Source of the DNA: Vicinamibacterales bacterium
Lineage (GTDB): Bacteria > Acidobacteriota > Vicinamibacteria > Vicinamibacterales > JAMQPK01
Direction of reading: 5' to 3'
Length of the DNA: 64,000 bases
Assembly: GCA_035281225.1 (NCBI GenBank)
Contig: DATEEI010000097.1
Coordinates: 16,496-80,495, forward strand
Shown here: positions 20,586 to 27,293 of the stretch, one piece after another
Position numbering within the stretch: the stretch's first letter is position 1
Layout of the letters: each line of letters begins with the position of its first letter
Notes under the pieces: model-generated
Databases searched by the model: none
Told to the model about the DNA's origin: nothing
What the model saw: only the letters and a program-made list of their open reading frames with translations
Program-made: the position numbers and the translations under genes

Positions 20586-22250
20586 TCACTCGATCTCTAT
20601 CACCCATACTGGGGCGGCAACCCCAGGCGACGATTCGTACAAGAGGTCGTACGGCCCGGTCGATGGGTCGGGCAGATCCGGCGTAGTGAGGCAGGCGACG
20701 TACCGCGCTCCGCGTCTGCGCCAAACGCTCCAATGCTCGGTCAGGCTATCCAGCGTGATCGTGCGCTGGCCCGTCAGCAAGTTGACCAGGGCGGGGTTGG
20801 TTGTCGCCACGACTGCCCGCTTGTCCAGGTGATTGCTCATCCAGTCGAGCGCCTTGTCCACTTCCGCCGCCCGTGCCAGCCAGTCCACTCCATTCGGATT
20901 CGATGAGGCACGGAGTGCGTAGCCGGTATGGTCGTACAGATTGAGCCCGATGATGGAGAGCAGTGCGACACGTGCTAGCGGTAACCCGGGCGACCATCGG
21001 AGTCCTTGAATGAAGTAGAAAAACAGGAAGGGTGTCAACGGCACGACGAAACGGAACGTCCACCAGGGCCACAGCACAATGATCGCCAAGGAAACCGGCA
21101 CAAGGATCTCAGCCATCGTCACTCGCTGACGAATTGTCCGAAGGTATCCAAGTGCAGCGATGGCACTCAACACCAACGAGATGGCCATATTCGCCGGGCT
21201 ACCTCCGAAACCAATTAGGACGAGTCCCACTCTGCCGCCGAGAGAAAGCACCTCCTCACCACTCTCGTCCGCACCGCGCAGCAGCCCCGGGATGATGATC
21301 CCTCCGACACCACGCGCGAATACATCCACAACGTTCGTGGTGACTCTCTCCGGCAGTTCTGCAACGGTTATGCGCCCGCTGAGCGGAGCGCCCGCCCGCC
21401 GCATCCAGAATTGGTCCGCGTACCCATAGAGGATCGATCCGCGATGCGCTTCTTGCTGTGCCGCAGTGGGGTGGTGAGCCTGTGCGTACAACGACCATGG
21501 CAGAAGGCACGCAACGGCGACCATGGCGAATCCCGCCGCTCGAGCCCAGCGACGCTCTTTGAGAAAACAGACACACGCGGCGATGAGCACGCTGGCGCCG
21601 GCGGAACGAATCAGTACCGCGACCACCGCCAGTAGCGCGGCGAAAATAATCCATCGTCGCGCGCCCTCGTCTGAAGCCTCGACCGCCCTGTGCGCAACCA
21701 CGACGGCGGCCAGCTGAGCCAGCGTGAACACGCATTCCGACATCACCGTTGACGTCGCCAAAAACACCAGCGCGGGTGTCAGGGTGATCGCAATCGCCGC
21801 GCAGGCAGCGAGATGACGAGGTAGTTGACGATCGCGATGCAAGTAGATGTAGCTCAGCAGACCGACTGCGAGCATCGCGGCGATCGACATGCTCTTGAGC
21901 AACCAGAGGTTCTCCGGAAAGTGCGGATAGGCGTAAAACGCCAGCGACAAGAGAGCCGGAAACCCGGGAGGGTACATTGGCAGAATACCCGGCAGGGGCG
22001 CATTGATCAGTCGGTAACCGTCCCCCTGCGCCAGGGCCTTCCCGAGCATGATGTACCACGCATCGTCGACCATCATGCCGACGGTGTCATCCAGTCTCAG
22101 CAGGTAAATGGGCAACGGCACCAGTACGATAGTTAGTGCGACGACCATACGACGCGCTCGATCGCTCGGCCTTACCTTCCGGATGGAGGTCATTCTGCTC
22201 GCTGACTCCCGGATTCTGCTGCTGACGCCGATACTAATTAGAGTTACCAC
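20586..22250 (-). CDS. GT-C fold membrane glycosyltransferase-like protein (GT39/ArnT/PMT_2-like)
   Basis: About 554 aa, polytopic. Acidic first-loop motif MMVDDAWYIMLGKAL after TM1. The track start is GTG 22250; ATG 22193 (MTSIRKVRP..) is an alternative. Confidence 0.65.
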   Translation of the reverse strand: MVTLISIGVSSRIRESASRMTSIRKVRPSDRARRMVVALTIVLVPLPIYLLRLDDTVGMMVDDAWYIMLGKALAQGDGYRLINAPLPGILPMYPPGFPALLSLAFYAYPHFPENLWLLKSMSIAAMLAVGLLSYIYLHRDRQLPRHLAACAAIAITLTPALVFLATSTVMSECVFTLAQLAAVVVAHRAVEASDEGARRWIIFAALLAVVAVLIRSAGASVLIAACVCFLKERRWARAAGFAMVAVACLLPWSLYAQAHHPTAAQQEAHRGSILYGYADQFWMRRAGAPLSGRITVAELPERVTTNVVDVFARGVGGIIIPGLLRGADESGEEVLSLGGRVGLVLIGFGGSPANMAISLVLSAIAALGYLRTIRQRVTMAEILVPVSLAIIVLWPWWTFRFVVPLTPFLFFYFIQGLRWSPGLPLARVALLSIIGLNLYDHTGYALRASSNPNGVDWLARAAEVDKALDWMSNHLDKRAVVATTNPALVNLLTGQRTITLDSLTEHWSVWRRRGARYVACLTTPDLPDPSTGPYDLLYESSPGVAAPVWVIEIE

Positions 22251-22265
22251 CTTGGCTGCGCACCC

Positions 22266-25488: not shown

Positions 25489-27293
25489 TGACCTGGCTTC
25501 CCGGGAGTGCCCAACCGCGCCAGACGGACTCGCGCCTCGGGGTAGTCGGGATCGACGATTAGCGCCTGGCGGTATGCCCCTATTGCATCCTCGGATCGCC
25601 CCAACTCGGCGAGCGCGGTACCAAGTCCCGTCCAGATGAACGCGCTGCCTTGCCGGTGTCTCAGGTAGCCCTCGTAATGTTCGCGCGCACGCTCAAACTC
25701 CCGCTGCTGCAGAAACAGAAATGCGAGGTTGCCATGCAGATCGGGGTTATCAGGATTCGTCGATAACAACGATTGAAGTTCTGCGATCGCGAGATCCATC
25801 TTTCCTTGCTGTGCCAAGGCCAGGCCCAGGAGGTTGCGCGCCGTCACGACATCTGCCGCAAGCGTCCCCTTCCGGCCGATGAAGGCCTGCAATTCCCTGA
25901 TGGCCGCGTCGAACTCACCGCGATCGTACATGTCTGAGGCGAGCAGGTACTGCGCCTGCGGGGTGTCGAGCGCGGCAGCGCGCAACTGTACCGTGGCTTC
26001 GTCCTTTTTACCGGCAACTCTCAACTCGTATGCCAGATTGAAGCGGGCGCGACCGTGAGGCCAGCGGTCAACCGACGTTCTGAGCAAGGTGACGCCCGAC
26101 ACGTAGTCCTGGTTTCGCTGAAACGTTGCGCTGGAGAGCCAGACCACCAGAAGCGCCGTCATCACACCGGCCAGGCTTTGCAGTCGCCGTGGGAAAAATC
26201 TTGCAGCGACTGCATAGACGGCGAGCGCTGCGAGCACGGCGATCGCAGCCAGCGGGAGGTACATGCGGCGCTCGGCGCCGACTTCGGAGGCGATCGGAAT
26301 AAAGCTCGACGCCGGAGCCAGCGTCATGAAGAACCATGCGCCAACAAAGCCGAGCAGAGGACGGCGAACAAGAGCGAATGCTGTCAGTAGAAGTAGAGAT
26401 ACCACCAACAGCGCTTGCGGAAGAACATCCATGAGGCTGAGCGCACGTGGTATCCCGTAGTCCAATACGAGGTCATACGGCCAGACCGTCAGTTTTAGGT
26501 ACTGCGAGATCATCAATGCCTGATTGAGCAGGTAGGTCCAGACCGAGACGCCGGCGCCAAACCCCGCGGTATTGCCGCGCGAGGACACCGTGACCGCGAG
26601 CGTCAGCCACGTCAAGGCTAGTCCTCCGTACAGCATGCCTCTCTCGCGCCACGCATCCTTCAACGATCGGAAGAAGAAAACGCGATCGTACAGAATGACC
26701 ATCAATGGCGCCGTGGCAATCGATTCTTTTGAGCCGGCTCCAAGGAGACAGCTGGCGATCGCCGCCAGATACCAACGCTTCGGGGTCGCTGAGCCCATGG
26801 CATGCACGGCGCAGAACACCGTGAGCAGATAGCACAAACCCATCAGCAACTCGGACCGTTGCGTCACGTAGTTGACAGCGTCAGTCTGAAGAGGGTGCAC
26901 CATCCAGATGAGGGCGCCGCCCAGCGCAATTCCGTCGGCGTGCCCCAGAAACCGCCCACGAAGGAGCGGTGCGGCGAGCGTCGTACGAATCAGCAGGAAG
27001 AGTAACAGAGACGCGGCGAGGTGCAGCGCGACGTTGGTGATGTGGTACCCGCGAACCGAGAACTCGCCGATCGCGTAGTTGATGGCGAACGACAGATTCA
27101 CGATGGGACGGTTCGCCACCACCCCATGAGCCGATGGCGCAAGAACGTCCATAGGCGGCCACAGGTGTCGAATACGCGGGTTCAGAAGGATGGCAGATTG
27201 GTCGTCGAAGAGAAAGGGTCCTGAAAGGCTGTTCGAGTACACAATCGCACCCACAACCGCAACAAGGGCGACGTGAAGAACTCGAGCCTTCAT
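25485..27293 (-). CDS. TMTC-like membrane glycosyltransferase with C-terminal TPR repeats
   Basis: 602 aa. N-terminus YSNSLSGPFLFDDQSAILLNPRI plus about 10 TM helices, then TPRs (..AQYLLASDMYDRGEFDAAIRELQ.., ..DLHGNLAFLFLQQREFERAREHYE..). The ATG overlaps the pilR stop (ATGA). Confidence 0.72.
   Translation of the reverse strand: MKARVLHVALVAVVGAIVYSNSLSGPFLFDDQSAILLNPRIRHLWPPMDVLAPSAHGVVANRPIVNLSFAINYAIGEFSVRGYHITNVALHLAASLLLFLLIRTTLAAPLLRGRFLGHADGIALGGALIWMVHPLQTDAVNYVTQRSELLMGLCYLLTVFCAVHAMGSATPKRWYLAAIASCLLGAGSKESIATAPLMVILYDRVFFFRSLKDAWRERGMLYGGLALTWLTLAVTVSSRGNTAGFGAGVSVWTYLLNQALMISQYLKLTVWPYDLVLDYGIPRALSLMDVLPQALLVVSLLLLTAFALVRRPLLGFVGAWFFMTLAPASSFIPIASEVGAERRMYLPLAAIAVLAALAVYAVAARFFPRRLQSLAGVMTALLVVWLSSATFQRNQDYVSGVTLLRTSVDRWPHGRARFNLAYELRVAGKKDEATVQLRAAALDTPQAQYLLASDMYDRGEFDAAIRELQAFIGRKGTLAADVVTARNLLGLALAQQGKMDLAIAELQSLLSTNPDNPDLHGNLAFLFLQQREFERAREHYEGYLRHRQGSAFIWTGLGTALAELGRSEDAIGAYRQALIVDPDYPEARVRLARLGTPGKPGQ

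Follow-up and report, generated by a model that had tools for sequence, protein, structure and literature searches.

A candidate pilin O-glycosylation island of GT-C-type membrane proteins between pilSR and pilA in a Vicinamibacterales bacterium

Pilin glycosylation is, to our knowledge, known almost only from a few Proteobacteria, with one enzyme per system (TfpO, PglL or TfpW). The modification shapes phage resistance, immune evasion and the surface chemistry of the pilus. Here, we analyse a stretch of 64,000 nucleotides (the window; GenBank assembly GCA_035281225.1, contig DATEEI010000097.1, positions 16,496–80,495) from an uncultured soil acidobacterium of the order Vicinamibacterales, represented by a metagenome-assembled genome (MAG). 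In its type IVa pilus (pil) cluster, four genes encoding polytopic membrane proteins, which we call G1–G4 (window positions 20586–27293), separate the regulatory genes pilS and pilR from the pilin gene pilA. We consider it probable, with moderate confidence, that this segment is the local version of a lineage-specific, hypervariable pilin O-glycosylation island that lies between pilSR and pilA in the Vicinamibacterales. Such an island with several GT-C glycosyltransferase genes is best read as a variation on the TfpW/TfpO theme.

TfpW, the GT-C pilin arabinofuranosyltransferase of Pseudomonas aeruginosa group IV (Pa5196/PA7), has 646 residues and 11 transmembrane (TM) segments and has been modelled on ArnT; it carries DDx in periplasmic loop 1 and, at the C-terminus, a large domain of tetratricopeptide repeats (TPRs) in the periplasm, uses a polyprenyl-phosphate sugar donor, and O-glycosylates several Ser/Thr residues of the pilin whose gene adjoins its own (bioRxiv 10.1101/2020.04.19.049825). 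In P. aeruginosa group I, tfpO (pilO) belongs to a pilA-accessory cassette and strains differ in the modification; TfpO and TfpW, both encoded in such cassettes, protect against pilus-specific phages. TfpO and the Neisseria enzyme PglL are likewise membrane enzymes that O-glycosylate pilin Ser/Thr residues in the periplasm. They belong, however, to the Wzy_C/O-antigen-ligase family and transfer a preassembled, undecaprenyl-pyrophosphate-linked oligosaccharide en bloc, whereas GT-C enzymes as a rule transfer sugars one at a time from polyprenyl-monophosphate donors. The eukaryotic and actinobacterial PMT/GT39 family and TMTC1–4 are GT-C enzymes that use polyprenyl-phosphate-mannose to O-glycosylate protein segments rich in S/T. 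In the three-component systems of periplasmic glycosylation (GtrA/GtrB/GtrC, the Mann & Whitfield model), a GtrB-type synthase is combined with a periplasmic GT-C transferase (PMC11127046).

The window, whose proteins were scanned with Pfam and NCBIfam, contains a Myxococcus-type type IVa pil cluster which, judging by the order of its open reading frames (ORFs) and their domains, is encoded on the minus strand throughout with the exception of G2. It resembles the M. xanthus cluster (pilB-T-C-S-R-A-G-H-I-D) in gene order, in a sigma-54/PilR-dependent pilA promoter and in the ATP-binding cassette (ABC) transporter and prepilin peptidase downstream. In M. xanthus, pilA follows pilR directly; here, the two are 6.9 kb apart and the pilin gene is duplicated. 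The gap between pilR and the first pilin gene (pilA1) holds exactly four ORFs, in the order G4, G3, G2, G1. All four, which the original prediction had placed between pilSR and pilA, are present and have hundreds to thousands of database homologues (649 for G1, 1540 for G2, 1577 for G3 and more than 2274 for G4); these counts mark them as genuine genes and not chance ORFs. Three further long ORFs, 248–395 codons in length and antisense or out of frame to pilR (27425–28612, plus strand), G3 (24460–25206, plus strand) and G1 (21256–22059, minus strand), are typical high-GC artefacts and no genes.

For G1 and G2, which have no Pfam or NCBIfam match, predicted structures place both proteins in the GT-C glycosyltransferase superfamily. 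AlphaFold2 models computed from the family alignments had a predicted local distance difference test score (pLDDT) of 86.7 and a predicted template modelling score (pTM) of 0.89 for G1, and 87.4 and 0.89, respectively, for G2; both display a C-terminal α/β periplasmic domain. When the models were compared to the PDB with Foldseek, at least the top 20 matches of each were all GT-C enzymes (probability 1.0, TM-score 0.45–0.54), and unrelated transporters appeared only at E > 0.2 and probability < 0.15. The top matches of G1 (20586–22193, minus strand) were AftA, STT3/OST, DPY19, ArnT (5F15, TM-score 0.54), PglB, PimE, Pmt4, AftD and ALG3. G2 (583 residues; 22266–24017, plus strand) best matched the mycobacterial arabinofuranosyltransferase AftB (9DLF/9DLH, E 1e-6, 18–21% identity, TM-score 0.52), followed by ALG12, STT3, ArnT, ALG9, AftA and EmbA/B/C. 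Its nearest relative of solved structure thus shares the arabinofuranosyltransferase activity of TfpW. The longest ORF of G1 extends to a GTG at 22250, and the start is most likely either ATG 22193, which has GGGAG 12 nt upstream, or ATG 22148, which corresponds to a 100% identical database entry of 520 amino acids; the protein is accordingly about 520–535 residues long.

G3 (510 residues; 23956–25488, minus strand) is identified as a GT-C protein by profile comparison: the profile of its family matches yeast Pmt1 (6P25, E 4.7e-5) among PDB sequences. In Pfam, G3 alone has only a sub-threshold match to ALG3; 11 of the 56 family members match PMT_2 and 8 match PMT (best E 4.5e-9), with ALG3, Glyco_transf_22 (GT22) and TMEM260 matched by others. 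G4 (602 residues; 25485–27293, minus strand) consists of a polytopic module of ~430 residues with some 8–11 hydrophobic segments and of C-terminal TPRs (residues 440–595, Pfam). The N-domains of 4 of 10 G4 homologues match PMT_2 (best E 7e-7), and we regard G4 as a probable, PMT_2-like GT-C candidate.

In all four families an acidic motif is located directly after the first hydrophobic helix. The DD of MVDDAWY in G1 is invariant in 46 of 46 sequences, and so is the DD of LFDDQSA in G4 (residues 30–31, after the first TM segment) in 10 of 10. D39 of the G2 motif IDDANIF is invariant and D38 at least 90% conserved (51 sequences); D32 of VPDEFEV in G3 is at least 90% conserved (56 sequences). The first-loop motifs to which the original prediction had pointed are therefore a feature of each family as a whole, and its claim of four GT-C-type enzymes stands by structure for G1 and G2 and by profile for G3, with G4 a likely further member. 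Alignment of the family profiles by hhalign in local mode gave no more than modest support for a relationship of G1 with G3 (probability 64%) and of G2 with G3 (83%), a probability of 27% for G1 and G2, and no relationship of the G4 N-domain to any of the other three (less than 3%). The four proteins are therefore not recent paralogues of one another.

None of G1–G4 matches PMT (PF02366) or PMT_2 (PF13231) above the Pfam cut-offs. As these domains are matched only by subsets of the homologues of G3 and G4, and sporadically of G1, the window proteins are remote relatives rather than clear members of the PMT families, and their identities to solved members are 10–21%. Single-sequence searches of PDB sequences returned nothing meaningful for G1–G3 and only TPR proteins for G4. 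G4 shares with TMTC proteins a membrane GT-C module followed by TPRs, the likeness that had earned it the description TMTC-type. The architecture stands; the TMTC domain DUF1736 was not detected in G4 or in the N-domains of its homologues, the MIR domain is absent, and TfpW-type is the more apt name. The label 'protein O-mannosyl-transferase' that G4 homologues carry at JGI is an automated one.

Set beside TfpW by its published description, G4 agrees in size (602 versus 646 residues), in the loop-1 DD and in the C-terminal TPRs. G4 proteins further contain a conserved Y265-x6-P272-Y-x8-P282 element, in which Y265 and P272 are invariant and P282 is at least 90% conserved (n = 10); the corresponding TfpW motif reads Y-x6-P-F-x7-P, a spacing that is off by one residue and a likeness that could be coincidental. 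As TfpW already combines a GT-C module with TPRs, G4 is the least novel element of the island. In Pfam, no Wzy_C domain as in TfpO and PglL was found in G1–G4, and a single G4 homologue had an insignificant match to Wzy_C_2 (E 0.032). The locus differs from that of TfpW in several respects: (i) tfpW is located downstream of pilA, whereas G1–G4 are upstream of it, between pilR and pilA; (ii) instead of one GT-C gene, there are four different ones, two of them coupled to pilSR and one on the opposite strand; and (iii) the host is an acidobacterium and not a proteobacterium.

The genes of the island relate to their neighbours in different ways. The stop codon of pilR and the start codon of G4 share the tetranucleotide ATGA (27290–27293), as do the stop of G4 and the start of G3 (25485–25488); both overlaps, reported earlier, were read in the sequence. 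G4 and G3 are therefore part of the pilSR transcription unit and translationally coupled to it. Among the four genes, this mode of expression from the pilSR transcript is limited to these two, so that the earlier statement that at least two are co-translated with the regulators is better worded as two genes being co-transcribed and translationally coupled. The notion of a whole set wired into pilSR applies to G4 and G3; the location of G2 on the plus strand, antisense to every other pil gene of the cluster, had been missed. G2 and G1 form a divergent pair separated by 72–117 bp, depending on the G1 start chosen, and the 3′ end of G2 overlaps that of G3 by 62 nt.

G1 lies directly upstream of the pilA promoter. 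A sigma-54 −24/−12 element, TGGCACGGGCGTTGC (20441–20455, minus strand), is found between G1 and pilA1, ~82 nt upstream of the pilA1 ATG, and is the only match without mismatches to the −24/−12 consensus in the 64 kb. In 14 of 18 related loci, the first pilA is preceded, at a distance of 92–109 nt, by an element of the form TGG[CT]A[CT]-N5-TTGC. With a PilR-type sigma-54 promoter of its own, pilA1 is transcribed separately, and the island is outside the pilA transcript.

The major-pilin candidate, pilA1 (19805–20359, minus strand), encodes 184 residues with the leader MRIRSKKNKG|FTLIELL and N-terminal matches to N_methyl and PilA_Myxo; the 253-codon ORF is over-extended, and the real start is the ATG at 20359. 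The second pilin gene, pilA2 (19193–19750, minus strand; N_methyl), encodes a protein 86% identical to the first. It starts with a TTG at 19750, right behind the U run of a terminator-like hairpin that separates the two genes (19756–19786, minus strand; 11-bp stem, −19.3 kcal/mol by RNA folding), and has no sigma-54 element of its own. The S/T/P-rich stretches quoted in the original prediction, SGATSATPTSPC, SASPVSPGTTGT and TSAPITAISTNGTPTPSGAEP, were found in PilA1, where they are also rich in alanine. Serine and threonine make up 22–23% of the mature pilins and 30–31% of their last 100 residues. The pilin genes of related loci, of which there are 2–4 in tandem, differ mainly in the S/T-rich C-terminal half (L004, L005, L008, L044, L057).

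The linkage to pili on which the original prediction depended recurs in relatives. One genome per GTDB species was scanned with the G1 alignment, which gave 72 loci, essentially all from Acidobacteriota. Related loci are labelled L001 and so on below, apart from one on a JGI contig. Island gene content was taken from tblastn mapping and called genes, and only island lengths from automatic ORF clustering, which is unreliable for content because the choice of the longest ORF in DNA of 61–65% GC favours antisense ORFs. The pil gene order is identical in the relatives, and in every Vicinamibacterales pil locus examined the gap between pilR and pilA is filled by an island of changing content, 3.4–11 kb in length.

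Homologues of G4, G3, G2 or G1 are part of the gap in L001/L002, L004, the JGI contig, L005–L009, L081 and L085. In L001/L002, a G4 homologue (75% identity) is followed by a 1110-residue protein, a methyltransferase, a GT2 glycosyltransferase, a second methyltransferase and two pilA genes. Read from pilR towards pilA, the L004 gap contains a 597-residue PMT_2 protein, two G4 homologues, a GT2, a 1109-residue protein and two methyltransferases, ahead of three pilA genes, and that of the JGI contig contains a 1098-residue protein, a methyltransferase, a GT2, a methyltransferase, a G4 homologue and a G1 homologue, ahead of two pilA genes. The gap of L005/L006/L009 begins with a G3 homologue (506 residues), a 722-residue polytopic protein, a WbpB-like oxidoreductase and a DegT aminotransferase and continues with a DPM1-like GT2, a hexapeptide acetyltransferase, a G2 homologue on the opposite strand and a G1 homologue, ahead of three pilA genes. 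L085 has a G2 homologue on the opposite strand, proteins of 571 and 539 residues and a G1 homologue, followed by three pilA genes; L081 has an 826-residue membrane protein with a sulfatase-family domain and a G4 homologue, followed by one pilA. L016 is rearranged, yet retains pilA, pilR, a GtrB gene and the 597-residue gene. The content of these islands is variable and their flanks are conserved, as in the pilA-accessory cassettes of P. aeruginosa.

G4 homologues of at least 57% identity are located in the pilR–pilA gap, and the G2 homologues in the islands of L008, L009 and L085, inverted as in the window, are 52–57% identical to G2. G1 homologues of at least 49% identity are present in 18 species representatives, and 16 of these 18 copies are directly upstream of pilA in a pil cluster. 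PilS, PilR and PilC are 80–90% identical between genomes, as compared to 49–63% for G1 and 49–65% for PilA, and the number of pilin copies varies from 2 to 4.

The G3 family occurs both alone and fused. G3 of the window is 81% identical to residues 1–503, the N-terminal module, of the 1110-residue two-module protein of L002, and the C-terminal module of the ~1100-residue proteins is the 597-residue PMT_2 protein of L004. The fused gene (G3-like module plus PMT_2 module) is at 5461–8793 in L002 and 14616–17945 in L004; the PMT_2 module stands alone at 8188–9981 in L004, and the G3 module stands alone in the window and in L005/L009 (506 residues).

The islands of relatives also encode the means of making a donor. 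The 308-residue GT2 of L002 is homologous over its full length to Synechocystis GtrB (5EKP, E 5.6e-75) and also to ArnC. This identifies it as a synthase of polyprenyl-phosphate sugars, the kind of enzyme with which GT-C enzymes naturally pair. GtrB-type genes are found in the islands of L004, L013, L016, L044 and the JGI contig as well. The toolkit further includes S-adenosylmethionine-dependent methyltransferases and sugar-nucleotide genes of the WbpB, DegT and hexapeptide-acetyltransferase types; in L005/L009, positions 4829–8271 hold a gene set for a 3-acetamido (di-N-acetylated) sugar and for its loading onto polyprenyl phosphate. These GtrB/DPM1-type synthases suggest that the donor of G1–G4 would be a polyprenyl-phosphate-linked sugar. 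The DprE1/DprE2/PRTase arabinose pathway, which supplies TfpW, was found neither in the window nor in the relatives' islands examined, where hexose-type donor synthases of the GtrB/DPM1 kind are present instead. A full-length GtrB homologue beside GT-C genes draws a parallel to three-component periplasmic glycosylation. The known systems of that type, however, decorate O-antigen, teichoic acids or capsule and not pilin, the window has no GtrB, and up to five GT-C genes per island are unusually many. No GtrA-type flippase was identified, although no systematic search for GtrA was made.

The active site of GT-C enzymes faces the periplasm, and their donors are polyprenyl-phosphate sugars. Pilins wait in the inner membrane with the globular domain in the periplasm, the right compartment for such enzymes. 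Considering this compartment and the S/T/P/A-rich stretches of the pilins, we propose pilin O-glycosylation along the following lines. A cytoplasmic GT2 of the GtrB/DPM1 type, island-encoded in relatives and presumably encoded elsewhere in this genome, would load a monosaccharide onto undecaprenyl phosphate, and the lipid-linked sugar would be flipped to the periplasm. The four GT-C enzymes, by means of their first-loop aspartates, would then move sugars to Ser/Thr residues of the S/T/P/A-rich surface segments of the pilin and to each other's products, at a stage when the pilin has not yet been assembled and is held by the inner membrane. The first sugar on the protein would be added by a single enzyme, with G4 (with its TPRs and TfpW architecture) or G1 (the most pilA-proximal and most strictly syntenic) as the foremost candidates, and the remaining ones would lengthen or branch the glycan or act on further sites. 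By analogy with TfpO and TfpW of P. aeruginosa, the modification would likely serve to vary or conceal the surface of the pilus as a protection from phages or predators.

A more specific and, taken as a whole, rather doubtful version of this proposal is that the GT-C enzymes form a periplasmic relay that builds an oligosaccharide stepwise on the membrane-anchored pilin, fed by polyprenyl-phosphate monosaccharides. Such a relay would be a bacterial, pilus-dedicated counterpart of glycosylation in the lumen of the endoplasmic reticulum, unlike the en bloc transfer by oligosaccharyltransferases. It would be encoded by a strain-swapped cassette of GT-C modules, GtrB, methyltransferases, aminosugar genes and membrane-bound enzymes of the alkaline-phosphatase superfamily, part of which would be transcribed with pilSR, and the capacity for modification would in this way follow the circuit that senses pilin.

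Several points weigh against a dedicated pilin glycosylation system. All four families are large and mostly not linked to pil genes. G1 homologues of less than 48% identity (Blastocatellia and other Acidobacteriota) are often arranged in tandem and lack pil genes within 10 kb; G4 homologues of 54%, 48% and 45% identity are located outside pil loci; and a G2 homologue in Anaerolineales (42% identity) shows no pilus link. The only clear exception to pilA linkage among the closer G1 copies is in L038, where the gene is outside any pil cluster (10001–11583; 58% identical in its N-terminal and 42% in its C-terminal part, possibly frameshifted, with a PAP2 phosphatase and FG-GAP/TPR proteins as neighbours). 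No GT2 donor synthase, flippase or sugar-nucleotide gene was found in the 64-kb window, so donor synthesis must be encoded outside it, in another part of the genome. The GT-C status of G4 is only probable because PMT_2 is matched by homologues and not by G4 itself, which has no Pfam match outside its TPRs, its N-domain profile matches no PDB sequence, and hhalign provides no link to the other families. The S/T richness of the pilins is suggestive only as evidence for the acceptor, and the case for pilin glycosylation in this uncultured MAG is computational throughout.

The strongest competitor is that the GT-C enzymes act on another target, be it exopolysaccharide, lipopolysaccharide, another envelope glycan or, in a general O-glycosylation, a broad range of periplasmic or outer-membrane proteins, in which case the pilR–pilA gap would be an insertion hot-spot or would reflect co-regulation of pili and matrix. 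The occurrence of the families outside pil loci and the L038 copy fit such a target, as do the preference of GT-C enzymes for glycans and lipids (ArnT, Aft/Emb, GtrC-type) and the fact that no acceptor-specific feature has been demonstrated. The distant homologues confine the pil association to a single orthologous set within a single order. In this set, however, 16 of 18 G1 copies abut pilA. Furthermore, translation of G4 and G3 is coupled to pilR, the pilins vary with the island in copy number and sequence among genomes with 80–90% identity in the machinery genes, and no polysaccharide polymerase, export or Wzx/Wzy genes were found in the islands seen. We therefore regard a target other than pilin as unlikely. 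The core of the original prediction, a candidate pilin glycosylation system, came through these computational tests; what we infer is glycosylation itself, together with pilin as the acceptor, the identity of donor and sugar, the sequence in which the enzymes act and the biological role.

It is far less probable that the island of the window is a decaying, non-functional remnant in which G3 is truncated, the donor synthase and methyltransferases have been lost and G2 is inverted. G3 does match only the N-terminal half of the ~1100-residue protein, and the similarity to the fused gene runs on for ~12 codons past the G3 stop, a pattern suggestive of recombination or truncation at ~23920–23956. 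gtrB and methyltransferase genes are absent from the window, where tblastn detected no remnant of them or of the C-terminal module of the ~1100-residue protein, and the 3′ ends of G2 and G3 overlap. Compared with their families, however, all four ORFs are undamaged and of full length, they retain the catalytic motifs, and both the stand-alone 506-residue G3 and the inverted G2–G1 pair recur in L005/L009 and L085, the inverted pair also in L008. The least probable of the explanations sees in the proteins accessory or assembly factors of the pilus that lack catalytic activity, such as TPR scaffolds (PilF/PilW/Tgl/TadD) or polytopic chaperones like TfpY. It draws on the names 'Flp pilus assembly protein TadD' and 'Tfp pilus assembly protein PilF', which JGI gives to several G4 homologues, and on weak, TPR-only NCBIfam matches to PilW and Tgl, yet these names and matches stem from the TPRs alone and are far below the family cut-offs, and they are at odds with membrane modules that carry invariant catalytic-type DD motifs, with the GT-C folds of G1 and G2 and with the co-occurrence of GtrB-type donor synthases in the islands. 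G4 in particular was rejected as an assembly lipoprotein of the PilF/PilW/Tgl type on account of its ~430-residue membrane module with an invariant DD and the sub-threshold nature of its TPR matches.

Full-text literature searches, in which subscription journals were mostly not covered, turned up neither pilin glycosylation in Acidobacteriota nor an island of this kind there; this agrees with the earlier view of the arrangement as undescribed and leaves its absence from the literature unproven. If pilin is the acceptor, pilin glycosylation would be extended to a new phylum, the abundant soil Acidobacteriota; a stepwise periplasmic building of glycans on a protein by several GT-C enzymes would be suggested; and three large, barely annotated GT-C-like families (G1, G2 and G3, with ~650–1600 homologues each) would gain a first candidate substrate. 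The native organism is hard to test, and the compact cassette of pilA plus 4–6 genes is suited to heterologous reconstitution.

Some island proteins of relatives may serve modifications of pilin other than glycosylation. The 826-residue protein of L081 (7517–9997) has a polytopic N-terminus and a domain of the sulfatase/alkaline-phosphatase superfamily, an architecture that recalls EptA/PptA/LtaS. It was not retained as a pilin phosphoform transferase of the PptA/EptA type, as true sulfatases and phosphonate monoester hydrolases are what it matches best in the PDB and the likeness is one of architecture only. A protein of ~567 residues with an 'SDHG' motif recurs in the islands of L010, L011 (8257–9960), L017 and L085 (8219–9934) and has no Pfam or PDB match. 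Together with the 826-residue protein, it may carry out non-sugar, perhaps phospho-form, modifications of pilin. A setting of another kind is seen in L083, where the 54%-identical G4 homologue is found amid YcaO, ThiF and radical-SAM genes and tatC in a non-pil region (15134–19620); 4–7 kb away from it, the same contig encodes a GT-C protein of the TMEM260_N type and a TPR-secretin (PilQ-like).

The flanks of the island are those described earlier, with pilS, pilR and two N_methyl pilins identified by Pfam in a Myxococcus-type cluster. On the minus strand, pilB (32841–34598), pilT (31680–32825) and pilC (30443–31675), assigned from ORFs and domain calls, precede pilS (28761–30434), a sensor histidine kinase of 6TM_PilS, PAS, HisKA and HATPase domains whose orthologues in relatives are 80–83% identical and occupy the same position. 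pilR (27290–28708) encodes a sigma-54-dependent response regulator (receiver, sigma-54 AAA+ and HTH_8 domains). Downstream of the pilins, translations revealed a PilH/PilI-like ABC transporter (17412–19153, minus strand; ATPase at 18215–19153 followed by the permease), with ABC_tran and ABC2_membrane orthologues downstream of pilA in all relatives, as in Myxococcus-type clusters. Beyond it, the window reaches the position at which relatives hold a prepilin peptidase, a PAS kinase and minor pilins.

In the minor-pilin region of the window, two clusters face each other (6676–8601, minus strand, and 8789–13892, plus strand). A tandemly duplicated module consists of a large PilX-like protein (509 and 481 residues; 10270–11799 and 12447–13892) followed by a protein of ~177 residues (11796–12329 and 13616–14428) that starts with '...QSLA(D/E)VA..EEARRK' and has a third copy at 6030–6827. 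Next to these clusters is another sigma-54 response regulator (4633–6012; 42% identity to PilR), which may regulate the minor pilins separately.

Two features of the related genomes concern the records themselves. In L081, a long-read MAG, pilB, pilC, pilS, pilR and pilD are split into many short genes, and similarly split tblastn matches were seen in L020, L057, L065 and L074; in L081 this looks like frameshift sequencing errors rather than pseudogenisation. Several MAGs with Acidobacteriota-type G1 homologues (L010, L028, L043, L046, L049–L054 and others) are titled Bifidobacteriaceae, Heliomicrobium, Heliobacteriaceae, Clostridia or Actinomycetes. These GTDB record titles look wrong, or the bins contaminated; L010 also carries a complete pil locus of the Vicinamibacterales type.

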